Positions 4,252 through 52,813 are shown, counted from the stretch's first letter. The stretch: 64,000 nt of DNA from Candidatus Saccharibacteria bacterium UBA6824 (GCA_002452155.1 DKEK01000002.1:85750-149749); one strand, 5' to 3'. Program-made: numbers and translations. Notes: generated by a model from the sequence alone, not told the origin.

Positions 4252-5157
4252 TTAGCCGGGTGTTTTAATCAGTTTTATGAACAGCCCCAAGCCCAAAATT
4301 ACCAAGGGGAAAATTATGGCCGTACCGACCAAGAAAGCACCGGCGTAGCTGGCCGCCCCAAAAGCGTCGACTAGTTTTATTTTTGCGTGGACCAAGTACG
4401 GCCGGTTGGCCATAGCCAGTAGCAGCGGCGCGGCCAAACCCACGAAACTGGCATAATATTTGAGTTTGAAGTTAGTTTTTCCGCTAATTACCAAAGAAGC
4501 CATAAACAGACCGACGATGCTGAGCAGATCGAGCACCACAATCGGCCATTTTTGCAGACCAATGCCGCTATAGATGATAGCCAGCGGCAAAAAACTACCC
4601 AACACCATCAGCCAAGCACAGTAGAGCACCAGACCGGACCACTTCCTTTTGCTGTCTGATTGCCCATCCAAAAACAGCTTGCCGATGGCTACAATGCCCA
4701 AAATCACACTGAGCATAATCATAAACCCGACTAAGGAGCTCCAAAATGGCTCAGCCGTCAGTAAATAAACTCCGGCAGCGCTAAAGCTAAGCGGAATGCT
4801 AAAACAGGTCAGGGCGAATAAGGAGGCGCCCCATCTTGGCAGGCGGTCGGGCCGCCAATAAAATAAAACTAGCACTACGCAGGCCCGGGCCAAAAGAGCA
4901 AAAAGGCCGACCACCAGCGTAGATAGGAGCGCGCGGCTAAGGAAGTTCAAGGCGTTATTAAATAGCATGGCAACCGTTGTGAAGCCAAAGACTAAAAAGA
5001 CATTTGTGACTTCCCAAAGCGGCGTAAAGTATTTGCGTGTTTGATTTTGGCCGCCGGTCAGAAAACTCAGGGCGACACCGCACTCGACACTGCAGGCCAG
5101 ACCGTACACAGCGAAGAAAATGGCCGCTGTCAGCATCGAGGCGTCAACTAGGCTCAT
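4252..5157 (-). CDS. cydB: Cytochrome bd ubiquinol oxidase subunit II (CydB-like)
   Basis: 301-aa polytopic membrane protein directly downstream of, and overlapping, the CydA-like gene; TPLWEVTNVFLVFG resembles the CydB N-terminal region. Confidence 0.5.
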   Translation of the reverse strand: MSLVDASMLTAAIFFAVYGLACSVECGVALSFLTGGQNQTRKYFTPLWEVTNVFLVFGFTTVAMLFNNALNFLSRALLSTLVVGLFALLARACVVLVLFYWRPDRLPRWGASLFALTCFSIPLSFSAAGVYLLTAEPFWSSLVGFMIMLSVILGIVAIGKLFLDGQSDSKRKWSGLVLYCAWLMVLGSFLPLAIIYSGIGLQKWPIVVLDLLSIVGLFMASLVISGKTNFKLKYYASFVGLAAPLLLAMANRPYLVHAKIKLVDAFGAASYAGAFLVGTAIIFPLVILGLGLFIKLIKTPG

Positions 5158-6457
5158 GCAGTGCCTCCGCCGGATGAAAAACTTTTCTAAGGGCGAATAT
5201 GCTCAGTGCCAACAAGAGCAAATATAGTAGCGGGAAGGTTTCGCCCAGGCCAATCACGGCTTTATTTTGGGTTACGGCGTCGGCTGTGCGCAAAACGCCA
5301 TGAATGACATAAGGCTGCCGGCCAAATTCGGTCACCAACCAGCCAAATTCAGCGCCAATTACCCCCAAGAAGCCGCAAACAAAAAGGCCTTTGAGCATAA
5401 TTTTGCGGTGGGCTATACGAGGCCGCCAGCGTCGAAATACCAGATACAACCCGGGTATTAATATACCAATCGTGCCAATGGCCACCATGCCATCGAAAAA
5501 GTAATGGACGATGACTGGTGGCCGATCGCTCGGCTTAATATCGGCCAGACCCGTGACTTTGCCATTAAAATGACCGGTAGCTAAAAAACTCAACAGGCCT
5601 GGAACCTTAAGGGCATGCTTAACCTCGCTGCCACTGACCGTGCCGCCTACTAGTAGCGGGGCATTGGTTTGAGTCTGCTGCAGCCCCTCAATGGCCGCCA
5701 GTTTAGCCGGCTCGTTTTTAGCCAAAAATTTGCCGGCCCGGTCGCCGGTAAAAGCTACTAATATGCCAAAAATGACCGCCAAGCTAGCCAGGCCAAGCAT
5801 TAATCTCTGTAGTCTAGGCCCCGGCCGGCCTTTGTTGTGCCGCCAGGCAATCCAGGCATAAATTGCCAGTAGCACAAGGGTTGTCGCAAATAAATAAGAC
5901 AGAATTGAATGCGTCACTTCGGTACCGACAGCCGGATTAAAGACCGCTTGGCGGGTATTAATATCCACCGGGTTACCGTTACCGTCCAGCCTAAAGCCGC
6001 GGGGGGTGTTCATCCAGGCATTGACGGTAGTTATCGCAAAGGCCGAACCGATAGATCCGGCCACGATCGGCAAGCTGCATAGCCAATGCTGTAGCGGCGT
6101 AAATCGTTTCCACGAAAGCATATAGATAGTTAAAAACAGGGCTTCGATCAAAAATGCGAACCCCTCGAGCGCAAATGACAGACCGACAACCTTACCGGCC
6201 AGCGAAGTAAATATCGGCCATAGCAGGTTAAACTGCATACTGACAATCGTGCCAGAAATCGCCCCAGCGATGAACAAAACGACCAGCGCCTTAGACCACT
6301 CATGGGCAGTTTGGCGGGCGGCCGGCCGTTTTTTCCAGATACTGTAGGCTTCCAGACCGCAAATCAGCAGCGGTAGGGCCACGCCAAATAGCACAAAAAA
6401 CAGATGAAACCCTAGCGTATCACCAATTAGCCGTCTACCGGCCGCTACCGTTTCCAT
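5144..6457 (-). CDS. cydA: Cytochrome bd ubiquinol oxidase subunit I (CydA-like)
   Basis: FHLFFVLFGVALPLL resembles the CydA helix-1 haem-ligand region, with a periplasmic Q-loop-like segment and 9 predicted TM helices. Confidence 0.65.
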   Translation of the reverse strand: METVAAGRRLIGDTLGFHLFFVLFGVALPLLICGLEAYSIWKKRPAARQTAHEWSKALVVLFIAGAISGTIVSMQFNLLWPIFTSLAGKVVGLSFALEGFAFLIEALFLTIYMLSWKRFTPLQHWLCSLPIVAGSIGSAFAITTVNAWMNTPRGFRLDGNGNPVDINTRQAVFNPAVGTEVTHSILSYLFATTLVLLAIYAWIAWRHNKGRPGPRLQRLMLGLASLAVIFGILVAFTGDRAGKFLAKNEPAKLAAIEGLQQTQTNAPLLVGGTVSGSEVKHALKVPGLLSFLATGHFNGKVTGLADIKPSDRPPVIVHYFFDGMVAIGTIGILIPGLYLVFRRWRPRIAHRKIMLKGLFVCGFLGVIGAEFGWLVTEFGRQPYVIHGVLRTADAVTQNKAVIGLGETFPLLYLLLLALSIFALRKVFHPAEALHEPS

Positions 6458-6556
6458 TGGTTTTAGTATATCTCAGCACTGGCGGCTACCATAACCATAT
6501 TGTAAAGCGTAGTTAAAATGTTTATGATACAACCAAAGCATTAAATAAGGAACAGA

Positions 6557-7099
6557 GTGATGGCATTAAAAAAACACATCGCCGACGCCAGCCTGTACGT
6601 CTGGGCGTTACTTAGAATCGCATTTGGCTATATATTTTTATGGGCTTTTTTGGATAAGTTGTTTGGGCTTGGCTTTTCAACCTGCAGGGATAAAATAACA
6701 GCTGTTATTAGCGGCGGTTGTTCGCAGGCTTGGGCCCATGGCGGCTCGCCGACGAAGGGTTTTTTGGGCAACGCAACGACTGGACCGTTCAAGGACTTCT
6801 ACCATCACCTGGCCGGACAGATGTGGGTTAACTGGTTGTTCATGCTCGGCCTGCTAGTTATTGGGCTTGGTTTGCTACTCGGCATTTGGGTCCGCTTGGC
6901 AGCCTTTGCCGGCATTGTGATGATGTTACTGATGTGGAGTGCGCTGCTATGGCCGGTCAATGCGCCCGGTGTCGACGAGCATATTATCTACGCCTTAGCC
7001 CTGTTTGGCATAGCCCTAGTCGATGACAACCAGGTTTGGGGGCTACGCTCCTGGTGGCGCAAAACCCGCTTGGCCAAAGTCGCACCATTTCTCCGCTAG
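6557..7099 (+). CDS. DoxX-family membrane protein
   Basis: LLRIAFGYIFLWAFLDKL at the N-terminus is a DoxX signature; 4 TM helices. Confidence 0.4.
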   Translation: MMALKKHIADASLYVWALLRIAFGYIFLWAFLDKLFGLGFSTCRDKITAVISGGCSQAWAHGGSPTKGFLGNATTGPFKDFYHHLAGQMWVNWLFMLGLLVIGLGLLLGIWVRLAAFAGIVMMLLMWSALLWPVNAPGVDEHIIYALALFGIALVDDNQVWGLRSWWRKTRLAKVAPFLR

Positions 7100-7109
7100 T
7101 TTCTTGGCC

Positions 7110-8771
7110 TCAAAAATTCTCCCTGATGTGAGACATAGAAAAGTCCCAGTCGGCGTCGGTTTTTTTGTGGGGGTTAAAGATGTTTTCCGGGTCAAAGATT
7201 TTTTTGGCTTGGCGGAATAGCTCGACAATTTCTTTACCGTACATTTGTTCCAGCCACGGGCCGCGGATCATGCCGTCATTGTGTTCACCGGACAAGCTGC
7301 CGCCGTAACTTAGAATCAGTTCATTGACTTCGCGCATTGCCGGCGCCAGCTTGGCACGCTCCGCCGGTTCTTCGATCTTCATCAGTGGGATGACGTGGAA
7401 GTTACCGTCACCCATATGGCCGGCAATAGTTGCCAGTAGTCCATGCCTTTTTATAATTTCGCGCAGGCGCGGCAAAAACTCCGACAAACTAGCCGGTGGC
7501 ACGACTAAATCGTCTATAAACGGCGCTGTATGCTTGTTTTTGACTTTTTTCCGCAGCAGGTTAAAGCTCTCGCGGCGCATAATGCGAAACTTCCAGGCCT
7601 TGGCTTCGGTGCTGTCTTCTTCGGTTGCCTCCAGGTGAAATGGTTTTAAGCCCAAGCGCATGGCGTGGACCTTCTGGGCGACTTCTTCTGGTGTCTGGGC
7701 TGTATATTCAATCAGCAGTACCATTTTGGGTATGCCCTTCAGCAGCAGGAAAGCATCAGGAATCAGGCTCCACGCTAACTTAAACAAGCCCCCCCAGCCC
7801 AGGGTTTTACGGAAGTAAGGGAAGAATTTAATCGCCAACTCCAGCGTATAGTTGTCGAAGGCTTCAAAGCTGGCTGGTTTGGTGGGCGCCACCGTATTGA
7901 TGATTTCGCCCAGCTGGTTGAGGTTTTTCATAAAGCACACCAGCACACCGGAATGAGGCTTATCGTGCACCAGCCGAAACTCAATATCACCGATTAGACC
8001 GAGGGTACCTTGGGAGCCGGTAAATAGCTTGGTCAGATCAAACACCCCGGTTTTGCGGTCCCAGACATCCCACAAGTTGTAGCCGGTCGAGTTTTTGCTG
8101 ACATGCGGCTTGGCCTTTTTTATTTTGTCGTAGTTGGCCACGAGCAGGTCAAACATTTGTTTATATATTTGGCCTTCAAAATTATCTTGGGCCATTTTTG
8201 CTTCCAGCTCGTCTTTCTTGAGCGATTTTAATTCATACATTTGTCCGTCGGCTAATACAACACCTAGTTTGTTGACATAATCTTCGGTCTTACCGTACTC
8301 CAGCGACTTTTCGCCGCCGGCGTTGTTGGCCACCATGCCCCCCATCGCCGCCAGTTCGCGGCTGGCCGGGAAGCTAGGCAGCAGGGCGCCTTTTTGCAGC
8401 GTAGCTTTTTCGAAATCTCGGTAAAAAACGCCAGGCTGGGTACGAGCCGAAAAATCCTGCAGGTCTTCGATTCTGTTCATATAGCGCGTAAAGTCAACGA
8501 TCACAGAATCGTTGATGGCGCCGCCGGACATGCAGGTACCGCCACTGCGGGCAGTCAATGATAGATTTGATACCTTGGCCCGCATTAAGTGGGCGCTTAT
8601 CACCAGCCGCTGCAGATCCTGCGTATTCTTCGGGAACACTACCAGCTCGGGTACCATCTCAAACAGAGAGGCGTCGTGACTATAAAATTCCCGCGTTCGG
8701 TCGGAGCCATCAATGTCGCCCTCAAAACCCCTTTTTTTTAGCAGATCGATAAATGGGCCCACCGTACTCAT
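7110..8771 (-). CDS. FAD-linked oxidase (GlcD / D-lactate dehydrogenase family)
   Basis: FAD_binding_4-like N-terminus (VVFPKNTQDLQRLV...SLTARSGGT...GG) with a C-terminal FAD-oxidase domain. Start moved to the ATG at 8771, which has an AAGGG SD; the longest ORF begins at a TTG at 8816. Confidence 0.75.
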   Translation of the reverse strand: MSTVGPFIDLLKKRGFEGDIDGSDRTREFYSHDASLFEMVPELVVFPKNTQDLQRLVISAHLMRAKVSNLSLTARSGGTCMSGGAINDSVIVDFTRYMNRIEDLQDFSARTQPGVFYRDFEKATLQKGALLPSFPASRELAAMGGMVANNAGGEKSLEYGKTEDYVNKLGVVLADGQMYELKSLKKDELEAKMAQDNFEGQIYKQMFDLLVANYDKIKKAKPHVSKNSTGYNLWDVWDRKTGVFDLTKLFTGSQGTLGLIGDIEFRLVHDKPHSGVLVCFMKNLNQLGEIINTVAPTKPASFEAFDNYTLELAIKFFPYFRKTLGWGGLFKLAWSLIPDAFLLLKGIPKMVLLIEYTAQTPEEVAQKVHAMRLGLKPFHLEATEEDSTEAKAWKFRIMRRESFNLLRKKVKNKHTAPFIDDLVVPPASLSEFLPRLREIIKRHGLLATIAGHMGDGNFHVIPLMKIEEPAERAKLAPAMREVNELILSYGGSLSGEHNDGMIRGPWLEQMYGKEIVELFRQAKKIFDPENIFNPHKKTDADWDFSMSHIRENF

Positions 8772-40537: not shown

Positions 40538-41851
40538 ATGAGTAAATCAGTCCCTATTGTGGCCATTGCCGGACGGGCCAATGTCGGTAAATCAAGCCTG
40601 TTTAACTCCCTAATTGGGCGCCGTGAAGCTATTGTGGCCGAGGAACCCGGCACGACCCGTGACAGTGTGACGGCCAAGGCCAGCTACGAGGGCAAAGACT
40701 TTTGGCTGGTCGATACTGCCGGGCTGAAATCGGCGCAGGACAGCTTCGAGCTATCGATTCAAGACCAGATTAGTGAGGCGGCCGCCAGTGCCGATCTTAT
40801 ATTAGTGGTCGTCGAAGCCGATGTACCACCCACCCAGGAAGACAGGCGAGTTGCCACCATGGCCCTAAAGAGCAAAAAGCCGGTGCTGCTAGTCGTTAAT
40901 AAGATTGATAAAAACCCCAAGGGCGACCTTACGGTCTGGCAAAAACTGGGTATTAAAACCATCCTGGCAACCAGTACTACCCAAAGAAAGGGCGTCACCG
41001 AGCTGTTAGCAGCGGTAGCCAGCCAGTTGCCGCGGGCTAAGATAAAAACAGAGGGCAACCGAGTAAAAGTAGCCTTGCTGGGACGGCCGAATGTCGGCAA
41101 ATCGGCCTTATTCAACACACTCGGAGCCAAGCAGCAGGCAATTGTGGCAGAGAAGGCGGGCACTACACGTGATGTTAATCGAGTGGTGGTGCGTTATCAT
41201 GAGCGCGAGATCGAGTTAATGGATACGGCCGGGATTCGCCGCAGTGGCAAAATCGAGCGCGGCGTAGAGCACTTTAGCGTGCTGCGGGCCCTGGCCGCAG
41301 CAGAAGAAGCTGACGTGGCTTTGCTCCTAATGGATGTAAACGAACTCAACGTGCAACTGGACCAAAAAATCGCCGGGCTGGTCAAAGAGGCCGCCAAGGG
41401 TTTGGTTTTGGTGGTTAGCAAGTGGGACAGCGCCGATAAAGACAGCTTTACGCGCGACGCTTTGGCGCCGCAGATAGCCGCTACATTCCCATACGTACCG
41501 TGGGCACCGCTGATCTTTACAAGCGCGGTGACGGGGCAAAACGTTACCAAGATATTCGATTTAGTGCTGGAAATTGCCCAGAACCGGGCCCAAAAATTCA
41601 AGACTGCCGAACTCAATAAATGGCTGCAACACGCCATTAACCAGCACCCGCCGGCTGGCCTAAAAGGCCGCAACCCAAAGCTCAATTACATGGTCCAAGA
41701 GGAAGATATAGATATGCCCAGTTTCAAAATCTTCGGTGGCCACACTAAATTCCTGCACTGGAGCTACAAACGCTACTTGGAGCGCAGCTTCCGCGAGCAA
41801 TGGCCGCTAAACGGCACGCCGCTTAAATTCTGGTTTATAGAAAAACATTAA
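40538..41851 (+). CDS. der: Ribosome-biogenesis GTPase Der (EngA), tandem GTPase domains plus KH-like domain
   Basis: Two G-domains (GRANVGKSSLFN and GRPNVGKSALFN, DTAG x2, NKID/SKWD). Confidence 0.9.
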   Translation: MSKSVPIVAIAGRANVGKSSLFNSLIGRREAIVAEEPGTTRDSVTAKASYEGKDFWLVDTAGLKSAQDSFELSIQDQISEAAASADLILVVVEADVPPTQEDRRVATMALKSKKPVLLVVNKIDKNPKGDLTVWQKLGIKTILATSTTQRKGVTELLAAVASQLPRAKIKTEGNRVKVALLGRPNVGKSALFNTLGAKQQAIVAEKAGTTRDVNRVVVRYHEREIELMDTAGIRRSGKIERGVEHFSVLRALAAAEEADVALLLMDVNELNVQLDQKIAGLVKEAAKGLVLVVSKWDSADKDSFTRDALAPQIAATFPYVPWAPLIFTSAVTGQNVTKIFDLVLEIAQNRAQKFKTAELNKWLQHAINQHPPAGLKGRNPKLNYMVQEEDIDMPSFKIFGGHTKFLHWSYKRYLERSFREQWPLNGTPLKFWFIEKH

Positions 41852-41866
41852 GGTTACAATAAGAAA

Positions 41867-42523
41867 ATGGCACTTTTCCAGAAAAAACCGCAGGTTAGTG
41901 ACACGATGCCGCTTTATACAATCGGTTCGAATAAGACAGTTTTGATTATTGGTTTGGGCAACCCCGGCCAGCAGTACGCTGGTACGCGCCATAATGTCGG
42001 CTTTGAAGTTTTGGACCATTTCGCAAAAAAGAATGATTTTCCGGCTTGGATGGCCAAAAGGGACTTGAAGTGTGAGCTAACAATGGCTAATCTAGGTGAA
42101 AACCGGGTTATTTTATGTAAGCCTACTACGTTTATGAACCTCAGCGGTGAAGCCGGCCAAGCGGTGCAACATTTCTACCGGGTTTATAACCCCCAGACGC
42201 TGGTTGTTTACGACGAGCTGGCAATTGCGTTCGGACAGCTTAGAACCCGCCTGGGCGGCTCTGACGCCGGCCACAACGGCGTAAAATCATTGATCGCCCA
42301 CCTAGGCGAAGATTTCGGCCGCCTGAGGATCGGCATTGGCCAACAAACCGCTGAAAAAACCGCCCCCTCGTCCAAAGAAGCCAATACCAGCAAATATGTG
42401 CTTAGTAAGTTCAGCAAAGAAGAGCAGGCGATACTCCCCAAAATCCTACAGGAAGCCAACGGCCTTATCACCGAATACATCTTTGGCGGCGCCTTGCCGA
42501 ACGACACCCGCACAGTTTTATAA
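41867..42523 (+). CDS. pth: Peptidyl-tRNA hydrolase
   Basis: LIIGLGNPGQQYAGTRHNVGF...DELAIAFGQLR...GHNG. Confidence 0.9.
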   Translation: MALFQKKPQVSDTMPLYTIGSNKTVLIIGLGNPGQQYAGTRHNVGFEVLDHFAKKNDFPAWMAKRDLKCELTMANLGENRVILCKPTTFMNLSGEAGQAVQHFYRVYNPQTLVVYDELAIAFGQLRTRLGGSDAGHNGVKSLIAHLGEDFGRLRIGIGQQTAEKTAPSSKEANTSKYVLSKFSKEEQAILPKILQEANGLITEYIFGGALPNDTRTVL

Positions 42524-43133
42524 AATACAACTCGCTGGAGAGCCTTTATGGCCGGGTTCCTAAAAGACCTCCAGAGGGGGTGGGCACCGCTGGAGGCCTA
42601 TTACACCCTTCAACCCCACCATAAGCGAAGCGTCGAAAGTATCCGCTATAAAAGCTAAGATATTCGTGCCGCCCCTGGATAAATCCAGGGAACATCGTTG
42701 CCGACCCGCCGACCCACATTGAACGTAGAGTCATCCTGCAGCCGTCCGAAGATGGAGCAGGGCAGAGTTAAAGGGAATAAACTGTTTAAGATTTCCCACC
42801 CAATTTTTAAGCTTAAACAGTTGTATTTGCTTTTGGCGGTTACTATACTCATGTTAAAACCAAAAAATTGGGTGGGACCAACGGGTAAGTGGAGGGTATC
42901 AACTTAAACGCTAGATCTTAAACACTTAATAACAAGTGCAAAAAACACTTATCATTTGGGGGTATAAGGTGCGTAATCCTAACGTAATGAGGATTACGAG
43001 TTGCAATTTTAGCAGAAATGTGACATTAAGTCAATAGTAGAAAATGAAACTAAATGAAAGTCAATAGCCTTAAGCGCTTTCCTATCCCTTTGAGCCAAGT
43101 ACACAAAAAAATTAGTCGTGCTAACATAAAAAT

Positions 43134-43361
43134 ATGAAGAAAAAGCAGAGTTGGTGGGAGGAAGTATTAAAAGCAGTAGGCTATATTCTTGGCTCTTTCT
43201 TTATTGGAGCAACTTTCCTTATTGCTGTTGAAGCAATTGGTTCAACGCTGGCTGACAAAAACATTAGCCTTTGGGAATGGTATACCTTCTCAACCTTAAC
43301 CGGAGGATTTCTGTGGTGGTTATGGCAAACTTTAGTACCTGAAAATAAGGACGATAATTAG
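43134..43361 (+). CDS. Small two-TM membrane protein inside the mobile element
   Basis: 75-aa ORF with two hydrophobic helices and a Trp-rich C-terminus (WWLWQ). Confidence 0.3.
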   Translation: MKKKQSWWEEVLKAVGYILGSFFIGATFLIAVEAIGSTLADKNISLWEWYTFSTLTGGFLWWLWQTLVPENKDDN

Positions 43362-43392
43362 GCTATGAGCAAAAAACTCTTTAAAAGACTGA

Positions 43393-44310
43393 TTAAGACC
43401 GCTTCAACGCCCGTTCCAAAAGAACAGGACAAACAGCTTCAAAGCGGTGGTTATAACGAAAGACAAACTCCGAAACGTAAGAGTCCAAATACTTCGGAGA
43501 AACGTAGTGATAGGTCCCGTTGATAGAACGCTTTAGTTGCGACCAAAAGCCCTCTAAGTTGTTAGTATGTACGCCGTTTTCAACATAGTGCCCAACGCCA
43601 TGGTCTACAGTCAAGTGCTTGAAATCCCGGTGGGCATTTGTATATATTTTGCTCTTGTCAGTATGCAGAACAGCGTTAGGTTGTATGTTGGCCTTTAAGT
43701 AGGGCATAACTGTAAAGGCACTTGCACCGTCTACGACTTTGGCCTTTATTTTGCCACGCTTTTCAGCAATGCCGACAACCGGCACTTTATTATCATAGGA
43801 ATGAGCCTGTCGTCTGCGGCCACCAATATATGTTTCATCAGCTTCAACTACCCCAATCAATCTTTCAGCGTCCTGTTTCATGAGTAGGCGTATCTGTTTA
43901 GCCATGCGCCAAGCGGTTTTGTACGTTACGCCGAGGTGTCGCTCAAGTTCTTTGGCCGATACCCCGTTCTTAGCAACTGAAACTAAATAGATGGCATGAA
44001 ACCAGCTAGTTAGGGGAGTCCGGGAGCTACGGAATATCGTATTGGCTAGAGGGTACAACTGATAACCACAGTGCATACAAGCATATGACTGGCGTTTCTT
44101 GACCCGGTAGAACTTAGTTTCAGCCGCACACTTCGGACAGAACTTTAAGTCGCCGTAGCGGTTATCAAAGACGGCTTGCAGGCAAGCATTGTCGTCTGGA
44201 TATTCCGCTTGGAACTGCTTGTAAGTGTATCTCATACCTCTAATTGTACAGGCTAGATACTTGTCTGTCAAGGAATTAAGTAAGGAGTAAGTGTTGTACT
44301 TTTTGTTCAC
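43393..44310 (-). CDS. IS1595-family transposase (zinc-ribbon plus DDE domain)
   Basis: N-terminal C..C...C..C zinc ribbon (CPKCAA...CMHCGY) then the DDE region (VEADETYIGG...HTDKSKIY...NLEGFWSQLKR). Confidence 0.8.
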   Translation of the reverse strand: MNKKYNTYSLLNSLTDKYLACTIRGMRYTYKQFQAEYPDDNACLQAVFDNRYGDLKFCPKCAAETKFYRVKKRQSYACMHCGYQLYPLANTIFRSSRTPLTSWFHAIYLVSVAKNGVSAKELERHLGVTYKTAWRMAKQIRLLMKQDAERLIGVVEADETYIGGRRRQAHSYDNKVPVVGIAEKRGKIKAKVVDGASAFTVMPYLKANIQPNAVLHTDKSKIYTNAHRDFKHLTVDHGVGHYVENGVHTNNLEGFWSQLKRSINGTYHYVSPKYLDSYVSEFVFRYNHRFEAVCPVLLERALKRS

Positions 44311-45605
44311 TAATCGTCAAGTAAACCTACGTCTTTTAAACGTTTGTAGAAGAGTTTCCCCTGCAATCCAGTCTCAATTACTTCTTCCATATCACTATGA
44401 TTTTTTATGTAGTGACTTTCGCTGAAAGTTATGCCTACGCTTTCTTCGGGTTTGGTGTGACGCATTACCTCACGGCTGGACACTCGATGCTTATAAGGCA
44501 GTTTTTGGTCTTTACCATAATCTTTCCATGCATTAGGAGTCATGCCGGTAACACCAACCGTAATATCGCTAGTAACAATATCGTATCTGTCACCTACCGC
44601 TTTAATCTTGCTGTGAAATCTCTTATTTTCATTCACTTGAAAGTTTCTGGACTCATATCTTTTAAACAGAGCTACGACCTGTTCAGCGGTGCTGATACCT
44701 AGCCCTTCGCTTACTTTTGCAAGCTCACTGGCCGCCTTATCGCTATTGCCGGATATGGCTAGTCCAACGGCTTCTAGAGTTGAACTTGCAAGATTGTAGA
44801 GCTGTTCAGCACGAGCTGGATAGTCTGGAGTACGGCCACTTTGTTTGAACGCCACCAGCAACTCAGGCACTAATTCAAATGGCAGAAGTGGGGTAAAACC
44901 TTTTTCGAACCCCTTGACGAATGGTCCACTGATTTGTGGACCATCAAGTTTACGGTTGTGGATACTTACCACAAACTTTTTAAAACTTGTTCCTTGCACC
45001 CACTTAGAAAATGCGTCTGACCGCACTCCGATAAAGTCGGCTATGGACGGAAGGCTGAATAAGAAATAGCTTTTTACTTCGACTCCCGCCACAACGTCAG
45101 TTTTGACCTCAACCAGCCTAATCTCACTGGGGAAAACTCCGGCAGGAACTTTAGGGCTTCTAGTGGGGCCTATGGCTTGTTCTATGGCTCCCTCAACATT
45201 AACTGGCTCATCGAGTACTTCCACTACCGCTTCGGGTTCTGACATAATCCACTCCTTAATACCCAGAAGCTTCTTAATTAGGTCTTCTTCATTCTCTTTA
45301 TCTGTTTCAACGGCTACGTAGCGACCAAAAATGCCATCAGCTACCATTCGTTTTGGCTCAGCAGAATTATCATAAAAGACATTGGCGTTTTTTAGCTCCG
45401 GGACTGTACTATAAATCCTAGCCTTCAGTTCATTTATATAGGCCTCGACTACCTTGTTTGGTAGAAAACATTGCTGACCTCTTAATGCAAAAGCCCTAAT
45501 TTTACCAGCCTTCTGGAAGCGATAAGTACGTTGGCGATAGAAGTATTTTGCGCCTAGCTCGGCCTCAAGCTCAACGGCGGTCATCAGTTTATACATATTA
45601 CTCAT
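44310..45605 (-). CDS. Hypothetical 431-aa protein with an N-terminal excisionase/MerR-like HTH (HTH_17-like), translationally coupled to the transposase
   Basis: LMTAVELEAELGAKYFYRQRTYRFQKAGKIRAF fits the HTH_17 pattern. A one-nucleotide overlap joins its stop to the transposase start. Low GC. No other domain recognised. Confidence 0.45.
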   Translation of the reverse strand: MSNMYKLMTAVELEAELGAKYFYRQRTYRFQKAGKIRAFALRGQQCFLPNKVVEAYINELKARIYSTVPELKNANVFYDNSAEPKRMVADGIFGRYVAVETDKENEEDLIKKLLGIKEWIMSEPEAVVEVLDEPVNVEGAIEQAIGPTRSPKVPAGVFPSEIRLVEVKTDVVAGVEVKSYFLFSLPSIADFIGVRSDAFSKWVQGTSFKKFVVSIHNRKLDGPQISGPFVKGFEKGFTPLLPFELVPELLVAFKQSGRTPDYPARAEQLYNLASSTLEAVGLAISGNSDKAASELAKVSEGLGISTAEQVVALFKRYESRNFQVNENKRFHSKIKAVGDRYDIVTSDITVGVTGMTPNAWKDYGKDQKLPYKHRVSSREVMRHTKPEESVGITFSESHYIKNHSDMEEVIETGLQGKLFYKRLKDVGLLDD

Positions 45606-45695
45606 GTCAGTTACACTCCTGTTACAGTTATACTATATATTGTAACACACCCAATCAAGAGCCGCTTAAGCGTTTTTACAGTTTATACTTGGCTC

Positions 45696-46556
45696 ATGGG
45701 TATACACGTCCTTAAGCGTGATGATGCCGATTTCCCAATTATTTTGCGGCAGATCCCGTCGCCGCCGAAACAGTTATTTTGGCTCGGCGTGCACCCCAAT
45801 ACACTAATTAGCCAGCCGCGGGTAGCTATCGTCGGCAGCCGCAAAGTCTCCGCCTATGGCCGGACCGTAACTGAACGCCTAGCCGGCGAGCTGGCGAGAT
45901 TGGGTGTGGTTATTGTTAGCGGCCTGGCGCTTGGAGTTGACGCCGTAGCCCATCAAGCAACCCTAGACGCTGGCGGCCTGACCATGGCTGTACTGCCAAC
46001 CAACCTGGACAGCATTTACCCGGCCTCGCACTTTAACCTGGCTAGACAAATCATCGCTAGCGGTGGCGGCTTAATTTCCGAATACCCGCCCGGAACTGAA
46101 GCCTTTCCGTCTAACTTCATCGCCCGCAACCGGCTTGTCAGCGGCCTGGCAGATGTCCTGCTCATCACTGAAGCCGCCAAAAATAGTGGCACCATGCATA
46201 CCGCCGGCTTTGCGCTCGAGCAGGGCAGAACGGTTATGGCGGTGCCAGGCAATATAAACAGCCCCGGCAGCGAAGGCTGCAACAACCTAATAAAAGCCGG
46301 GGCCACGCCGGTAACCGCTACAGAGGATGTTCTTTTTGTCCTTGGGCTAAGATCTGGCGCGGGGGAGCAGACCAGCATCTTCCGAGGCACAGACAACGAG
46401 CAAAAGATTTTCGATCTCATTAGGCGCGGCGTTGCTGACCAAGAAGAAATAGCCGTAGCCGCTCGGCTGGAGGGCCCGGCCCTGAGTGCCGCCCTGACAA
46501 TGCTGGAAATTAATGGCTACATCCGGGCCGAGCGCGGCAGCTGGACATTGGTTTAG
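45696..46556 (+). CDS. dprA: DNA-processing protein DprA (Smf)
   Basis: Rossmann-like core, GLALGVDAVAHQATL...GGLISEYPPGT...RNRLVSGL, and a C-terminal winged helix. The ATG sits at the last base of the IS right inverted repeat. Confidence 0.85.
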   Translation: MGIHVLKRDDADFPIILRQIPSPPKQLFWLGVHPNTLISQPRVAIVGSRKVSAYGRTVTERLAGELARLGVVIVSGLALGVDAVAHQATLDAGGLTMAVLPTNLDSIYPASHFNLARQIIASGGGLISEYPPGTEAFPSNFIARNRLVSGLADVLLITEAAKNSGTMHTAGFALEQGRTVMAVPGNINSPGSEGCNNLIKAGATPVTATEDVLFVLGLRSGAGEQTSIFRGTDNEQKIFDLIRRGVADQEEIAVAARLEGPALSAALTMLEINGYIRAERGSWTLV

Positions 46557-46598: not shown

Positions 46599-48893
46599 AT
46601 GCCAAAGAACCTGGTCATTGTGGAGAGCCCGACCAAAGCCAAAACCCTTGCCCGTTATTTGGGTAAGGACTATGAGATAAAAAGCAGCTTTGGTCATATT
46701 CGCGACCTACCCAAAAAAGATATTGGCGTGGATGTGCAAATGAACTTCGAACCTACCTACCAGGTACCGCCCGACAAGCAGAAAATAGCCAGAGAGCTTA
46801 AATCGGCCGCTAAAGGCAGTACAGTCTGGCTGGCTAGCGACCCCGACCGCGAAGGCGAGGCCATTGCCTGGCACATCTGCAATATTTTAGGTCTAGACCC
46901 AGGAAGCACTAAACGTATTGTTTTCCACGAGTTTACCGAAACTGCTCTTAGGAAAGCTATGGCGGCTCCGCAAACTGTTGATATGAAACTGGTCGATGCC
47001 CAGCAGGCCCGGCGTATTTTAGACCGGCTGGTGGGTTATGAACTAAGTCCGGTGCTGTGGAAAAAGGTCCGCAGCGGTTTGAGCGCCGGCCGGGTACAGA
47101 GCGTAGCTGTGCGACTGATAGTCGAGCGGGAAAGGGAAATAAAGGCTTTCACACCGGAAAGTTCATACAAAGTAACGGCCGTTTTCGATGCCCGGGACAA
47201 GGATGTGCCGGCCGAGTTATCCGAAAGATTAGACAATGATAAAGCGGCTGAAGATTTTCTCAATTCGATAAAAGCATCGTCTTTCAAAGTTTTGGCGATT
47301 GCTAAAAAACCCGGCACCAGGAGCCCCAGCGCACCCTTTACTACCAGCACCCTGCAGCAAGAGGCCTCTCGTCGGCTGGGCTACAGCGTCCGCCAGACGA
47401 TGGTGCTGGCCCAGCGGCTGTATGAAAACGGCCATATCACTTACATGCGTACCGATAGCGTCAATTTGGCCGGCGTGGCGGTGAGCGCCGCCAAACAATA
47501 TATAACTAGCAGTTACGGCGCCGATTATGTCCAGGTCCGGCAATATAAAACCAAAAGCCGCGGCGCCCAAGAAGCCCACGAAGCCATCCGCCCGACCCAA
47601 ATAGGCACTCTCAGCGCCGGCGCCGATAGCGCCCAGAACAAGCTTTATGAACTTATTTGGCAACGAACGCTAGCCAGCCAAATGGCGCCGGCTAAAATCG
47701 AAAAAACAGAGGTCGAAATTGATATCAGCGGCCGAGACCAAAAATTTATGGCTACCGGTGAAATTCTACGGTTTGACGGTTTTTTGAGAGTTTACGGCGG
47801 CGGCAAAGACGACCGGATTCTGCCCGAGCTGACACAGGGGCAAGAGCTAAAACTTAAAACCGCCAGCGCCCTGCAAAGCTTTAGCCGGCCGCCGGCCCGC
47901 TATAGCGAGGCCAGCTTAGTTAAGAAGCTAGAGGAACTGGGCATCGGCCGCCCCAGTACTTACGCCCCGACCATCGGCACGATTCAGGACCGCGGTTATA
48001 TTGAAAAGAAAGATCTGCAAGGCGAGCCCCGACAACTGAAGGAGTTTATTTTAGCCGGCGGCCAACTTAGCCAGCGGACCCAAGACGCCGTGGTGGGTGC
48101 GGACAGGGCCAAACTGCTGCCCACCGAGCTGGCCGAAATCGTCAACGACTTTTTGGTTAAATATTTTGCTACTATCATCGACTATGATTTTACGGCCAGG
48201 GCCGAAGAAGACTTCGACGATATCGCCGAGGGTAAGGCCGATTGGCGCGAAACCTTGAAGCGCTTTTATGAACACTTCCACCCGCTAGTCGAAAAAGCCG
48301 AAGGCGCCAGCCGGGCCGAGGCTATGAAAGTCAGGCAACTGGGCAAGGACCCGGGGAGCGGCCAGCCGATCATAGCCCGCTTTGGCCGCTTCGGCCCGGT
48401 TTTGCAGATGGGCGAGACCCCGGCCAAAGATGACAAGCGGGCCGCCAAGCCGAAATTCGCGCCGCTGCCCGAAGGCACGACCATAGACGAGATAACCCTG
48501 GAGCAGGCCTTGCCGATGTTTGACTTGCCGCGGGTAGTTGGCAAGACCGAGGCCGGCGAAGAGATAAGCGCCAATATTGGACCCTACGGCCCGTACATTA
48601 AAGTCGGCAAGAAGTTTATTAGCCTCAAAGAAGACGATCCACTACACATAACCGAAGTCCGGGCCAGGGAGATTATCAAAGACCAGGCCCAAGCAACAGC
48701 TAATAAAACGATTGCCGATTTTGGCAGCTTGAAAATCCTGCGCGGCCCCTACGGACCATACATCACAAATGGTAAGAAAAATGCGCGGATCCCAAAGAGC
48801 ACCGATCCAGAGAAGTTAACAGAGGCCGAGGCCCAAAAAATGTTAGACGAGGCGCCTGATAAGTCCGGCTTCCGGCGCCGAAAGAAAAAGTAG
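46599..48893 (+). CDS. topA: DNA topoisomerase I
   Basis: Toprim (LVIVESPTKAKT, DPDREGE), active-site Tyr region (ITYMRTDS), and C-terminal Zn-ribbon-less Lys-rich repeats. Confidence 0.95.
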   Translation: MPKNLVIVESPTKAKTLARYLGKDYEIKSSFGHIRDLPKKDIGVDVQMNFEPTYQVPPDKQKIARELKSAAKGSTVWLASDPDREGEAIAWHICNILGLDPGSTKRIVFHEFTETALRKAMAAPQTVDMKLVDAQQARRILDRLVGYELSPVLWKKVRSGLSAGRVQSVAVRLIVEREREIKAFTPESSYKVTAVFDARDKDVPAELSERLDNDKAAEDFLNSIKASSFKVLAIAKKPGTRSPSAPFTTSTLQQEASRRLGYSVRQTMVLAQRLYENGHITYMRTDSVNLAGVAVSAAKQYITSSYGADYVQVRQYKTKSRGAQEAHEAIRPTQIGTLSAGADSAQNKLYELIWQRTLASQMAPAKIEKTEVEIDISGRDQKFMATGEILRFDGFLRVYGGGKDDRILPELTQGQELKLKTASALQSFSRPPARYSEASLVKKLEELGIGRPSTYAPTIGTIQDRGYIEKKDLQGEPRQLKEFILAGGQLSQRTQDAVVGADRAKLLPTELAEIVNDFLVKYFATIIDYDFTARAEEDFDDIAEGKADWRETLKRFYEHFHPLVEKAEGASRAEAMKVRQLGKDPGSGQPIIARFGRFGPVLQMGETPAKDDKRAAKPKFAPLPEGTTIDEITLEQALPMFDLPRVVGKTEAGEEISANIGPYGPYIKVGKKFISLKEDDPLHITEVRAREIIKDQAQATANKTIADFGSLKILRGPYGPYITNGKKNARIPKSTDPEKLTEAEAQKMLDEAPDKSGFRRRKKK

Positions 48894-49007: not shown

Positions 49008-49036
49008 TTGACTATTGAAAACTAAAGTTTTATAAT
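49008..49036 (+). promoter_or_regulatory. Near-consensus sigma-70 promoter (TTGACT-17-TATAAT) for the HTH-protein gene
   Basis: TTGACT at 49008-49013, a 17-nt spacer, TATAAT at 49031-49036, inside an AT-rich 160-nt spacer after topA. Confidence 0.5.
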
Positions 49037-49082
49037 TATATTAGCCGGTAGCGTGATAATGCACGCTAACAGGGAAGAAATT

Positions 49083-50129
49083 ATGGCGAACAACACGGAA
49101 GCAACCACCAGTTTAAACATCGAATCAATCGTTCGGGACATACTCGGTACGATTGACAGAGAGCGCGAGCGGGAAATTATCGCCCGCCGTTTTGGTTTGT
49201 TTGACCGCCGCGAAACCCTGGAACAGATCGGCGAGCTGCTTGGTATTACCCGTGAACGAGTCCGCCAGTTGGAAAAGGCCGTCATCACTAAACTCAAAGC
49301 CGCCGGCGAGGATCTGCCGCATATCAAAGAAGTCGAATCGGTGGTGGGGGAACATCTGACCGAGATGGGTAATGTCGCCCGGACCGGTGAAATCACTAAG
49401 CGACTGTCGCCGGAAAATACGAAGATTGACCAATCACGGATTGCTTTTTTGGCCCATTTGGCGCCAAACATCGCTGTTATTGGCGACAACGACCACTTTT
49501 ATCATTCGGTTGGCCTGGCGGGGAAGCACAGCGAGAAAGCCATCCGCGACCATGTGGGCAAAGTAACAGATGCCATAATTGCGATCGGCGAGCCAACTAA
49601 TATAGAAACAATTGCCAATCAGGCCGGCAATAGCGACCACAGGCACGTTGAAGCGCTAGCTAGTATCTCTAAAAACATCTCTAACCTGCACGGACGTTGG
49701 GGCCTAACCAAGTGGCCGATGGTCAACCCCAAAAATATCCGCGATAAAATTTACGTCATACTGCACGACTACAAGAAGCCGATGCACTTTTCGCAGATCG
49801 CCGAGGCCATCAAAAAGAGTGATTTTAAACGCAAAGATGTTACCACCCAGGCCATCCACAACGAGCTGATAAAAGATAAGCGCTTTGTGCTGATTGGCCG
49901 CGGCATTTATGCCCTACGCGAATGGGGTTATAAGAAGGGCGCCGTGGCCGACGTCATCGCCGAGGTTCTTAAAAAAGAAAACGGACCGCTGCACCGCGAC
50001 GAAATCGTCAGGCGTGTACTTAAAAGCCGCCAGGTTAAAGAGACTACGATTCTACTGAACCTGCAGGGCAAGCCGCAGTTCAAGCGCGTGGCCAAAGCCA
50101 CCTACGCACTAGCGACCGACGCCGTATAA
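49083..50129 (+). CDS. DNA-binding protein: sigma-70 region-4-like HTH plus a C-terminal HARE-HTH domain
   Basis: RFGLFDRRETLEQIGELLGITRERVRQLEKAVITKLK (sigma r4 HTH); C-terminal ...KRFVLIGRGIYALREWG (HARE-HTH signature). Start chosen at the ATG at 49083 with AGGGAAG SD; the longest ORF begins at a GTG at 49053. Confidence 0.5.
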   Translation: MANNTEATTSLNIESIVRDILGTIDREREREIIARRFGLFDRRETLEQIGELLGITRERVRQLEKAVITKLKAAGEDLPHIKEVESVVGEHLTEMGNVARTGEITKRLSPENTKIDQSRIAFLAHLAPNIAVIGDNDHFYHSVGLAGKHSEKAIRDHVGKVTDAIIAIGEPTNIETIANQAGNSDHRHVEALASISKNISNLHGRWGLTKWPMVNPKNIRDKIYVILHDYKKPMHFSQIAEAIKKSDFKRKDVTTQAIHNELIKDKRFVLIGRGIYALREWGYKKGAVADVIAEVLKKENGPLHRDEIVRRVLKSRQVKETTILLNLQGKPQFKRVAKATYALATDAV

Positions 50130-50239
50130 GACACTTATCGCGCCGGGCGTGGAATGAATCCGCTCGCTTTAGTGCTATCTTCTCGAGGAATGCGGTAGTA
50201 AGAGATATAGCGTAAGCGTATAATTGGATAAAGATATTT

Positions 50240-52813
50240 ATGATACTACGTAGGAATAAAAAAGTGCGAATGCATCACGAGCATTGTTTGTTAATGCTCG
50301 AAATTCCGCGCGAAAACGATAAAAAAGAACTCGCGGCCGAGCAAATGCTGGCGGCCCTGCATGGGATCTTACGATCCCGGCGGGAGCTGCGGGTATCGGG
50401 CACCCTGCAAGAGCATATTAGTTTGGAAATTGCTGCCAAGGGCCCACGAATTCGTTTTTATATCTGGACGCCTAAACATCTGCAGGCTTTTGTCGAAGGT
50501 CAGATTTACGCCCAATATCCTACTGTCCAGATCACCGAGCAGGATAGCGATTATTCAGAGCGGCAGCTCGACCAAGAAGTGATCCATACGGCCGAGTTGA
50601 CCCTAATTGGAAACGAAACCATGCCGATTAAAACTTTCCCCAGCTTTGAGGTGGACCCCCTGGCATCCATCACTGCCACCTTAGCTAAACTCGATAAAGA
50701 AGATGAAGAGATGTGGATCCAGATCATGGCCCGGCCGATTGCCGATGATTGGCACAAGCGCGGCAGCAAAATGGTCGCCCGTATCCGCGGGGGCAGGGGA
50801 GGCCTAAGCGGTAGCGGCGGCTCTACTATAAATTATGCCGGGCAAGCCTTTGCGGCCTTGGTCCGGCCGCCGGACGCCACCGGCAAGGAAGCTGGCGCTG
50901 CGCCGGAGATTTCTGAACGGGACAAGGCCCGTATAACAGCCATCGAAACCAAGACCCAGAAGCTGGGCTACCAAGTTAAGATCCGGCTGGTTTACGCCGG
51001 CAACGATGCCCGGACAGCCCGGCTACGGATACAGGCCCTGGTAGGGGCATTTAAGCAATTCAATACCACTAACTTGAATGGTTTTAAGGTCAAAAGCACT
51101 AGTTTCAAGCAGGACAAACAGCTAGAATACCAAACGCGTTTTTTTATTGATAACGGCTTTATATTAAACATTGAAGAGCTGGCTAGTCTCTTTCATCTGC
51201 CGCATACTACAGTCGAGACCCCCAATATTGTTTGGGCGACCACCAAAACGGCCGAACCGCCGGCTAATATCCCGGTTGCCGAACCCGGCCAAGAAGCAGA
51301 AACCAGCTTATTCGGCGTGACCAACTTCCGCGGCGACAACACCGTCTTTGGTATCCGCCGTGATGACCGCAGCCGCCATATGTACATATTGGGACAAACC
51401 GGTACCGGTAAATCTGGTGCCCTGGAGCTGTTGACTATATCTGATATTTACTACAACAAAGGCTTCGCGGTCATTGACCCTCATGGCGATTACGCCCAAC
51501 ACGTTATGAAGTTTATACCTAAAAATCGGGTCGATGATGTCGTCTACTTCAACCCGGCCGACACCAACCGCCCGATTGGCTTTAATCCGCTAGAAATTAA
51601 CGACCAGTCACTCAAAGGCCATATTAGCTCCGAGGTAGTTGGTGTGCTGAAACGGCTGTTTGCCGAAAGCTGGGGGCCGCGGCTGGAATATATCCTGCGC
51701 TACACGCTGCTGGCGCTGCTGGATTTTCCCAACGCCACGATGCTGGACATCACCCGTATGCTGACCGACCGGCACTTCCGGGCTGACGTCATAAAGCATA
51801 TCGACGACCCGGTGGTAAAGAATTTTTGGACTGTTGAGTTCGCCAGCTGGAACGATAAATTTGCCTCTGAAGCGGTGGCCCCGGTGCTGAACAAGGTCGG
51901 TGCCTTTACGGCTAATCCGATGATTAGGAATATTGTCGGCCAGCCTAAGAGTACTTTCGATATCCGCAGCATTATGGATGAGGGTAAAATTCTTATCGTT
52001 AATCTTAGCCGTGGTCTGATGGGCGAGGATAATGCCGGGGTCTTGGGCTCTTTAATCGTTACTAAGATCCAACTGGCTTCTATGGGACGGGCCGATATGC
52101 CCGCGGCCGAGCGGACACCGTTTTACCTCTACGTCGACGAGTTCCAGAATTTTGCCACCGAGTCGTTTGCGACTATTCTTTCGGAGGCCCGTAAGTACGG
52201 CCTCAACCTAACTGTCGCCAACCAGTACATTTCGCAGATGGGCGAGGAAGTCCGCAGCGCCGTCTTTGGCAATGTCGGTACTGTCATGAGCTTCCGGGTT
52301 AGCCCGGACGACGCACCTTTTTTGCAAAAGTATTTCGAACCGGAATTTGAAGCCGCCAACCTTATACAGCAACATTCACGTTTCTTCGTAATAAGCATGA
52401 TGATAGACGGCGAGAAGGCGCCGGCCTTTTCGGCCAAGACACTTAACTTGCCACAGCCGCCAGATGATAATTCGGTCCAGATCATCGCCCAGACTCGTGA
52501 ACGCTATAGCCGAAGCAAAGCTGAAGTGGAGGCCGAGATCCGCGCGGCTTCCGGCCTGCCGGGTACCGCCAAACCAGAAGCCGCGCCAAGGGCTAATGAC
52601 CGGCCCAAGTTAGCGCCGCATCGACAGATCGTCAAACTAGCAACCGGAGTTACCCACCCAGGTAAACCTACGGAGTCAGAAACCGCTCAGCCGCCTAAGC
52701 GCAAACGCTCGAGGCGACGGGGCAAGTCAGGTGGTGGAGCAGCCAGCCAAGCCAGCCGGGCCCCAGCTGATAAGTCGGCTGACAGCGATGAACAGACCAT
52801 TCGCTTACGCTAA
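50240..52813 (+). CDS. Large soluble FtsK/TraD/VirD4-superfamily P-loop ATPase (type IV coupling-protein-like) with a basic C-terminal tail
   Basis: Walker A at YILGQTGTGKSG, Walker B at FYLYVDEFQNF, ...KYGLNLTVANQYISQM; no N-terminal TM helices; C-terminal KRKRSRRRGK. Confidence 0.5.
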   Translation: MILRRNKKVRMHHEHCLLMLEIPRENDKKELAAEQMLAALHGILRSRRELRVSGTLQEHISLEIAAKGPRIRFYIWTPKHLQAFVEGQIYAQYPTVQITEQDSDYSERQLDQEVIHTAELTLIGNETMPIKTFPSFEVDPLASITATLAKLDKEDEEMWIQIMARPIADDWHKRGSKMVARIRGGRGGLSGSGGSTINYAGQAFAALVRPPDATGKEAGAAPEISERDKARITAIETKTQKLGYQVKIRLVYAGNDARTARLRIQALVGAFKQFNTTNLNGFKVKSTSFKQDKQLEYQTRFFIDNGFILNIEELASLFHLPHTTVETPNIVWATTKTAEPPANIPVAEPGQEAETSLFGVTNFRGDNTVFGIRRDDRSRHMYILGQTGTGKSGALELLTISDIYYNKGFAVIDPHGDYAQHVMKFIPKNRVDDVVYFNPADTNRPIGFNPLEINDQSLKGHISSEVVGVLKRLFAESWGPRLEYILRYTLLALLDFPNATMLDITRMLTDRHFRADVIKHIDDPVVKNFWTVEFASWNDKFASEAVAPVLNKVGAFTANPMIRNIVGQPKSTFDIRSIMDEGKILIVNLSRGLMGEDNAGVLGSLIVTKIQLASMGRADMPAAERTPFYLYVDEFQNFATESFATILSEARKYGLNLTVANQYISQMGEEVRSAVFGNVGTVMSFRVSPDDAPFLQKYFEPEFEAANLIQQHSRFFVISMMIDGEKAPAFSAKTLNLPQPPDDNSVQIIAQTRERYSRSKAEVEAEIRAASGLPGTAKPEAAPRANDRPKLAPHRQIVKLATGVTHPGKPTESETAQPPKRKRSRRRGKSGGGAASQASRAPADKSADSDEQTIRLR

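Follow-up and report, generated by a model that had tools for sequence, protein, structure and literature searches.

A probable transporter insertion sequence of the IS1595 family within dprA of Candidatus Saccharibacteria bacterium UBA6824

Introduction

Insertion sequences (IS) that carry passenger genes besides their transposase are known as transporter IS (tIS), and two sources document this category for the families IS1595 and IS66 (bioRxiv 10.1101/2021.05.26.445724; PMC3129680, citing Siguier et al. 2009). The present analysis concerns a stretch of 64,000 nucleotides from Candidatus Saccharibacteria bacterium UBA6824 (GCA_002452155.1, DKEK01000002.1:85750-149749), here called the window and numbered from its first letter, in which a low-GC block next to dprA had been described in a preliminary description as an IS1595-family element with a helix-turn-helix (HTH) passenger gene of 431 codons, here named p431. 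Passenger-carrying subgroups of the ISPna2+, ISNwi1+ and ISNha5 type were reportedly distinguished within the family by Siguier, Gagnevin and Chandler in 2009. The segment 43077-45710 of the window is, with high confidence, a tIS of the IS1595 family with p431 as true cargo. The reading as an IS with cargo is borne out by an empty site, by a target duplication and by conserved terminal repeats that enclose p431 and the transposase gene in three further loci as well.

The location of mobile elements within competence genes is a familiar phenomenon (PMC4774983, PMC12378983), and natural competence is established for Saccharibacteria (PMC10633639). For the comparisons below, the loci of relatives that were compared with the window are labelled with L numbers (L001 being the same contig as the window); the closest relatives in databases are Saccharibacteria and other Patescibacteria assemblies.

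Results

Boundaries of the inserted DNA

The ends of the element were defined with the help of an empty site on the metagenomic contig L029, whose DprA and TopA proteins are 80% (over all 286 residues) and 83% identical to those of the window. This contig aligns to window positions 42767-43076 and the next aligned base is 45710, with CCTTAAGC present in single copy. The junction sequence of L029 (...ATGAAAGTCAATAACCTTAAGCACGATGCC...) is the start of dprA, MKVNNLKHDA; in the window, ATGAAAGTCAATAGCCTTAAGCG (43054-43076) is followed by 2634 bp of foreign DNA and then by CTTAAGCGTGATGATGCC. From this alignment the junctions are placed exactly at 43077 and 45710, and the inserted DNA is the segment 43077-45710 (2634 bp). 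It is flanked by an 8-bp target-site duplication, a trait of the IS1595 family: CTTAAGCG is found at 43069-43076 and, as an exact direct repeat, at 45711-45718, where it forms codons 6-8 of the present dprA, versus a single occurrence in L029. The GC content of the inserted DNA is 43.5%, compared to 52-53% in its flanks and 50.6% in the whole window, so that the earlier estimate of about 40% was roughly right.

The preliminary description had set the ends at 43091 and 45696, with the insertion lying against the dprA start codon. Both points have to be revised according to the L029 alignment, since the insertion took place within dprA, at ancestral codons 6-8. The sequences directly outside 43091 and 45696, where a duplication was to be sought, are TATCCCTT and TGGGTATA and form no direct repeat; the duplication is situated 14-15 bp farther out.

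Terminal inverted repeats and related elements

The perfect 11-bp inverted repeat reported for the locus, TGAGCCAAGTA at 43091-43101 and its exact complement TACTTGGCTCA at 45686-45696, is present with both arms as placed, and its right arm does finish on the A of the dprA ATG. It is the inner core of imperfect terminal inverted repeats of about 25 bp, as they are found in IS1595 elements. The left one (CTTTCCTATCCCTTTGAGCCAAGTA, 43077-43101, plus strand), the tip of which has diverged from the consensus GGCGAC, pairs with the right one (45686-45710, minus strand, reading outward TACTTGGCTCATGGGTATACACGTC), which holds the present dprA ATG. The inner 11 positions of the pair match perfectly, and about 17 of 24 positions match overall. 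The family consensus of the terminal repeat is GGCGAC-TATCCC-N-AGCAAGTA, its ends being written GGCGACTATCCC..AGCAAGTA; repeat tips starting with GG are typical of the IS1595 family.

Mapping of copies in related genomes, which had been proposed for the definition of the element ends, yielded the same terminal repeats in L003, L006 and L134. There, repeats of the type TAT(C/A)CC..AGC(C)AAGTA enclose in each case a p431 homologue and an IS1595 transposase gene, in differing chromosomal neighbourhoods. The L003 element (repeats GGCGACTATCCCCTCATAGCAAGTA / GGCGACTATACCATGACAGCAAGTA) has a length of 3407 bp and an exact 8-bp duplication, GTAAAAAA. The L006 element, with repeats of the same type, has a length of 3287 bp and the duplication CGAGATGA, the right copy of which is shifted by 12 bp. 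The L134 element comprises 2983 bp, and its repeats match at 24 of 25 positions. Because the L003 and L006 target duplications have unrelated sequences, there is no simple target consensus. As a detail of L006, the 12-bp insert CGAGAAGTCGCC between the terminal repeat and the right duplication copy (L006:11122-11141) resembles a slipped copy of the duplication plus the repeat tip.

Taken alone, the 11-bp repeat is weak evidence. Perfect inverted 11-mers occurred as 9 overlapping pairs in the 3.5-kb region, and about 2.6 are expected in shuffled sequence of this length and composition, so the repeat might be thought a chance match in a low-GC segment that was acquired by another route. A pair joining these two intergenic zones arose in 68 of 5000 shuffles, however, and the repeat is independently validated by its conservation in sequence and position in four other elements; moreover, it sits exactly at the empty-site junctions with the 8-bp duplication alongside. 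The probability of a chance match is regarded as negligible.

Genomic contexts of p431

Among the six Saccharibacteria-type contexts of p431 (52-100% identity), four are IS1595 elements, namely those of the window, L003, L006 and L134. In the remaining two, the gene is located beside a large serine recombinase gene (L129) or is solitary (L027). The empty site lacks p431, the small open reading frame (ORF) orf75 and the transposase gene alike, and p431 is enclosed by terminal repeats in five elements, as a tIS passenger would be. The distant homologues, which come from Shapirobacteria and other Patescibacteria, stand alone, packed between housekeeping genes and without a transposase gene nearby, and the transposase family is far larger than that of p431 (6992 versus 77 matches). 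Both observations would suit an explanation in which p431 is a resident chromosomal gene alongside which a one-gene IS1595 element inserted, without any cargo. The empty site contradicts it, as L029 lacks p431 as well as the transposase gene. Furthermore, terminal repeats and duplication enclose p431, four of the six Saccharibacteria-type genes reside in repeat-bounded IS1595 elements at unrelated loci, and the low GC content is common to p431 and the rest of the element. A resident p431 is thus very improbable.

As to L129 itself, positions 5001-8393 encode a p431 homologue (61% identical), followed by a 75-amino-acid ORF and a 538-amino-acid large serine recombinase, with no IS1595 transposase; the p431 family is therefore tied to more than one kind of mobility gene.

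Transposase gene and its promoter

The transposase gene (43393-44235, minus strand, ATG at 44235) encodes 280 amino acids starting with MRYTYKQ, which is also the length in the JGI gene call on the same contig. Its assignment to the IS1595 type with zinc ribbon and DDE domain was confirmed by matches to Pfam PF12762 (DDE_Tnp_IS1595, E 1.3e-36, profile positions 2-153 of 153), Pfam PF12760 (Zn_ribbon_IS1595, E 1.6e-9, profile positions 1-46 of 46) and NCBIfam NF033547 (transpos_IS1595, E 2.8e-58, 197 bits at a cutoff of 75). Among 8000 candidates scored, 6992 homologues were below E 1e-40, with thousands in Saccharibacteria.

The maximal transposase ORF begins at a GTG overlapping the p431 stop codon, and the zinc ribbon starts at its residue 38, 13 residues past ATG 44235. 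Inside the supposed N-terminal extension, a sigma-70-like promoter was found that scores 11/12 in the promoter scan (TTGACA-17-TACAAT, 44243-44277 with boxes 44271-44243, minus strand); it is followed by AGAGG and then by ATG 44235, and this block is preserved in the DNA of L003 and L035. The earlier statement that p431 ends exactly where the transposase starts holds for the maximal GTG ORF and fails for ATG 44235, which is located 74 bp downstream of the p431 stop. Translational coupling of the two genes, proposed at the same time, was rejected on account of the separate promoter, the downstream ATG and the convergent order of transposase gene and p431 in L006 and L134. For roughly half of the closest transposase homologues the gene calls give 305-312 amino acids, and the approximately 25 codons 5′ of the likely ATG, which comprise the promoter and a repeat described below, are open in frame in many elements; this open frame is attributed to what appears to be conserved DNA sequence.

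The -35 box of the transposase promoter is embedded in a subterminal repeat resembling the terminal inverted repeat (IR-like repeat; AATTCCTTGACAGACAAGTA, 44258-44277). The cargo slot is the region between the terminal and the subterminal repeat, and a second variable slot 3′ of the transposase gene is occupied by orf75 in the window, by a 138-amino-acid ORF in L003 and by HicB/HicA in L109. L125-L128 contain a near-cargo-free element of about 1.55 kb in which the subterminal repeat lies 82 bp inside the terminal repeat. An IR-like repeat just 5′ of the transposase gene in the window, L003, L109, L134 and L125-L128 would be in line with a nested or composite origin, that is a simple IS (transposase gene plus orf75, 44277 to 43077) beside a p431 cassette with an extra copy of the inverted repeat, the transposase being able to use the inner or the outer repeat. 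The homology between the window and L035 also begins exactly past the stop codon of the upstream cargo gene, which is p431 in the former and a P63C-domain gene in the latter. On the other hand, the target duplication flanks the outer repeats, and it was therefore the entire 2.6-kb unit that moved in the recorded event; in addition, the transposase -35 box is overlapped by the inner repeat, which may be a mere operator. A nested origin is a possibility of some standing, albeit a doubtful one; it is compatible with the identification of the whole unit as a tIS and concerns how that tIS arose.

Passenger genes orf75 and p431

The small hydrophobic passenger ORF orf75 (43134-43361, plus strand) was obtained from the ORF scan and encodes 75 amino acids. 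Of the two transmembrane segments ascribed to it previously, hydropathy supports one strong hydrophobic segment, while the second is only weak and two clear segments are not seen. Searches of Pfam, PHROGs, NCBIfam and PADLOC gave no match for orf75, and no homologue was found in the other elements compared.

The passenger gene p431 (44310-45605, minus strand) encodes a protein of 431 amino acids with an N-terminal HTH, an acidic linker and a C-terminal domain of phage type. No direct match was found in Pfam, PHROGs, NCBIfam, PADLOC or PDB sequences. Its 77 full-length homologues (43-67% identity) all belong to Patescibacteria. The AlphaFold2 model (mean pLDDT 79.6) consists of three parts, an N-terminal domain (residues 1-121), a disordered acidic linker (124-158) and a C-terminal region. 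Over its first 70 or so residues, p431 is similar to small HTH proteins of the excisionase, MerR and PrtN types (Foldseek probability 0.95-1.0 at non-significant E values of 0.3-1), the targets being HTH, Xis and PrtN proteins of 50-70 amino acids, with SoxR and BldC as weak fold matches. The profile HTH_17 (PF12728) has no match in p431 of the window and weak matches in 4 of 30 family members (best E 0.006). Together, the small-domain fold matches and the family hits give weak but consistent support to the excisionase/MerR-like HTH of the preliminary description.

Its further claim that about 380 residues lack a recognisable domain could not be maintained. An exhaustive profile search with p431 returned a small family and, in addition, remote proteins of about 240 amino acids matching positions 306-430, which according to a Pfam scan contain AntA, Rha or Bro-N domains. 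The C-terminus of p431 aligned with these remote proteins over 171 columns in hhalign (99.2%, E 1.7e-19), which makes it homologous to the C-terminal domain of phage AntA/Rha/Bro-N proteins; the Pfam families Bro-N, Phage_pRha and AntA themselves had no match in p431 or in any of the 30 family members. A phage origin of p431 was also considered and rejected, since no relative was found in IMG/VR contigs or GenBank phage records.

A palindrome, GTTAC-N16-GTAAC (45621-45646, minus strand), overlaps the p431 promoter with its extended -10 box TGtTACAAT and is a putative operator. GTTAC-N16/17-GTAAC, overlapping an extended -10 box, is located directly 5′ of the start codon in 14 of 19 p431-family loci from several Patescibacteria lineages, and it is also present at solitary chromosomal genes and at relatives of about 130-180 amino acids that correspond to the N-terminal domain alone. 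This conservation suggests that the HTH of p431 most likely binds the palindrome at its own promoter and represses its own gene. Besides the window, the loci with the palindrome are L003, L006, L008, L011-L013, L017-L019, L022, L023, L027, L129 and L134.

On the question of whether p431 is unrelated to transposition, linkage to mobility genes in five of the six Saccharibacteria contexts and the excisionase-like HTH stand against solitary genes and p431-free relatives of the transposase. The transposase relatives that were sampled lack p431, and because most relatives do so, transposition in general does not require it. The preferred reading of p431 is that of cargo, from a class typical for mobile elements, rather than a transposition factor.

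Chimeric start of dprA

The ancestral 5′ end of dprA is retained as an orphan on the left side of the element (ATGAAAGTCAATAGCCTTAAGCG, MKVNSLK., 43054-43076, plus strand), where it can be aligned to the beginning of dprA in L029 (ATGAAAGTCAATAACCTTAAGCAC) and in further relatives; it is now 2.6 kb away from the remaining gene. The present dprA (45696-46556, plus strand; Pfam DNA_processg_A, E 2.3e-70) has a chimeric 5′ end, as the final 15 bases of the element (ATGGGTATACACGTC, MGIHV) serve as its ATG and codons 2-5, the remainder of the gene being native. MGIHV replaces the ancestral MKVNS in frame, and the length of DprA is therefore unchanged; the ORF is intact and of full length. In L003 the right repeat reads ..CATGGTATAGTCGCC and contains an in-frame stop codon; the window copy has one additional G and a remodelled tip. 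It had been suggested that the insertion supplies or displaces the dprA promoter. The native upstream region is indeed displaced, but a supplied promoter was not found, as a consensus scan of the plus strand returned no sigma-70-like match in the 90-bp gap that separates p431 from dprA.

A second element at the same dprA site

The same pth-dprA interval is also occupied in L035 and L109-L118, where it encodes a transposase with 79% identity to that of the window. This sister tIS (L109:2826-5617, also present in L035 and L110-L118) consists of a P63C-domain gene, an IS1595 transposase gene and then HicB/HicA, the transposase gene being in opposite orientation to that of the window. Its repeats have diverged (..TAGCCAAGTA / TACTTGGCTTG..), and it is flanked on both sides by CTTAAGCT. 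An orphaned start, ATGAAAGTCAACACCCTTAAGCT, lies to its left, and the position in dprA is the same (codons 6-8), in a sequence variant of its own. The sister dprA likewise starts within the terminal repeat, in this case from TTG (TTGATAGACAGG).

The host proteins of the two genomes are less alike (58-71% identical) than the transposases (79%), and the closer relative L029 and about ten others have an empty dprA site. For these reasons, two independent insertions at one dprA site appear more economical than a single old insertion that was later inverted, exchanged its cargo and was precisely lost on repeated occasions.

The striking of an identical site in the window and L109 also bears on the role of the cargo. 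p431 could be a functional accessory, acting as a transposition regulator, as a directionality or targeting factor or as a regulator of host genes, and this would explain both the presence of DNA-binding proteins of a phage-regulator class in related elements and the two hits at one dprA site. Its N-terminal domain is excisionase-like, one homologue (L129) is encoded beside a large serine recombinase instead of a transposase, and in the L109 sister element this slot is taken by the gene of a P63C-domain protein; P63C, Bro-N, Rha and AntA are all members of one domain-shuffling network of phage regulators. Against this, no gene of this kind accompanies the majority of transposase relatives, the same putative operator is retained where p431 is solitary in other phyla, which points to a self-contained regulator, the L003 and L006 target duplications are unrelated, and no homology was detectable between p431 and the P63C protein of the sister element (hhalign 0.2%). 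An accessory function of p431 is considered unlikely.

In a similar vein, the tIS family may insert non-randomly, with dprA codons 6-8 targeted by the transposase or by the DNA-binding cargo, although we consider such targeting rather improbable. Its basis is the occupation of the identical 8-bp site by two related elements that differ in cargo and in transposase orientation, compared to about a dozen similarly distant lineages in which the site is empty. If it were true, these elements would separate dprA from the control region native to it, and the ORF would survive thanks to a start codon within the terminal repeat; p431 would be a regulator encoded by the transposon and not inert cargo, and a case of conflict between mobile elements and natural transformation would be at hand in Patescibacteria.

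A conserved structured RNA gene in the AT-rich flank

The AT-rich flank of the element (42900-43090) is conserved in L029 and 12 further relatives and is therefore native rather than inserted DNA. It is the promoter-proximal part of a structured RNA gene of about 440 nt (42562-43034 including the promoter, minus strand), which was recognised by conservation, promoter, covariation and terminator. The gene was seen at 13 Saccharibacteria loci between pth and dprA and always adjoins dprA. Its promoter (TATTGACA-17-TGcTAAAAT, 43034-43006, minus strand) is invariant across relatives; the body extends for about 440 nt past the promoter and combines invariant blocks with long-range helices, and at its end a terminator hairpin, the 15-nt loop of which is invariant, is followed by a U-tract (42598-42562, minus strand).

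RNAalifold predicted 52 pairs for the minus strand, of which 16 show compensatory changes and many are G-U, at -46.3 kcal/mol, compared to -39.0 kcal/mol for the plus strand. The plus-strand structure contains 14 pairs changed on both sides versus 4.1 in shuffles (none of 500 reached 14), and slid controls gave 1-3 such pairs. The invariant promoter, the terminator and the G-U pattern favour the minus strand. No Rfam 15 family matched the flank at gathering score or at E values up to 5.

The hairpin and the AGTCAATAG direct repeats mentioned in the preliminary description of this flank do exist, yet they do not belong to the insertion. The hairpin (CGTAATCCT...AGGATTACG) is the first stem-loop of the RNA gene; one copy of AGTCAATAG is the complement of the RNA -35 box, and the other represents ancestral dprA codons 3-4. 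A conserved structured RNA next to dprA without an Rfam family may be more novel than the transposon itself.

Gene neighbourhood

According to ORFs and Pfam matches, the gene order is der (40538-41851), pth (41867-42523), a non-coding stretch of 610 bp, the low-GC block, dprA and topA (46599-48893). In the region 3′ of topA (49022-52813), a sigma-70 region 4 / HARE-HTH protein and an 847-amino-acid protein with DUF87, TraG-D_C and TrwB-like coupling-protein domains are encoded.

Discussion

The organisation of the locus suggests the following sequence of events. The DDE transposase would recognise the imperfect terminal repeats of about 25 bp and insert the whole unit with an 8-bp target duplication, in this case at dprA codons 6-8. 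The unit would carry three independently expressed genes, namely transposase, p431 and the small hydrophobic ORF, with possible autoregulation of the transposase through the subterminal IR-like repeat over its promoter and putative autorepression of p431 through its HTH at the palindrome. By its insertion, the element has placed 2.6 kb between dprA and both its ancestral start and its whole native upstream region, and it has provided a new ATG from its right repeat.

Several points weigh against the interpretation as a tIS with p431 as its cargo or limit parts of it. The L134 element has no target duplication. Both repeat tips of the window copy (CTTTCC and GACGTG) deviate from GGCGAC, and due to this divergence the copy is probably immobile and fixed. 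The window contains a single copy of the element, no further transposase gene, p431 or terminal repeat being found within its 64 kb, and any activity of the element is hypothetical. Binding of p431 to the palindrome is putative, expression of dprA is likewise hypothetical in view of the negative promoter scan, and the internal IR-like repeat permits a nested origin, with a simple IS having been joined by a p431 cassette.

As a tIS, the element is a fresh example of a known architecture, and it represents a Saccharibacteria transposon that is fully delimited with regard to its ends, duplication, empty site and cargo. Saccharibacteria have tiny genomes and their genetics have been developed only recently; a native transposon with defined ends could serve as a genetic tool in these bacteria. 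Moreover, p431 stands for an uncharacterised family of DNA-binding proteins of Patescibacteria, with a phage-type C-terminal domain and putative self-regulation. At dprA, an insertion sequence has repaired the gene that it struck by donating a start codon from its terminal repeat. dprA is a gene of the natural transformation pathway, which Saccharibacteria are known to use (PMC10633639). The second, apparently independent hit at the same site makes a conflict between element and competence testable.

The insertion can be compared with mobile elements in comK, comYC, comFA, comEC and comM (Croucher et al. 2016, PMC4774983; PMC12378983). Common to all is the occupation of a gene of the transformation pathway, and a further likeness is the presence of a related element at the same site in a second lineage. 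In contrast to those insertions, the dprA ORF has not been destroyed and its length is kept by the element-supplied start codon; the inserted DNA is a DDE transposon, not an element with a site-specific integrase, and any effect on competence is hypothetical.

With regard to its cargo, p431 can be set beside two groups of proteins. Residues 7-70 or so resemble excisionase/MerR-like HTH_17 proteins (Xis, PrtN, BldC and the DNA-binding domain of SoxR) in their predicted fold, and a further likeness would be dimeric DNA binding, as suggested by the palindrome over its own promoter. Differences are that p431 is about six times longer than a typical Xis, that it scores below the Pfam threshold and that in most contexts it does not need a recombinase partner. 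The C-terminal 170 or so residues are homologous to the domain found C-terminal to AntA, Rha or Bro-N in phage antirepressor-like proteins (PF08346, PF09669, PF02498). In place of these N-terminal domains, p431 has the HTH_17-like domain, the acidic linker and an unassigned middle domain, and no relative was found in the phage records and viral contigs searched.

The closest described systems are the tIS of the IS1595 family. These, like the present element, have one DDE transposase that carries a zinc ribbon at its N-terminus, short terminal repeats, the 8-bp duplication, passengers inside the repeats and a size of 2.6-3.4 kb. It differs from them in its Saccharibacteria host, in its cargo, which is an unnamed 431-amino-acid putative DNA-binding protein or, in the sister element, P63C plus HicAB, and in the subterminal IR-like repeat over the transposase promoter.

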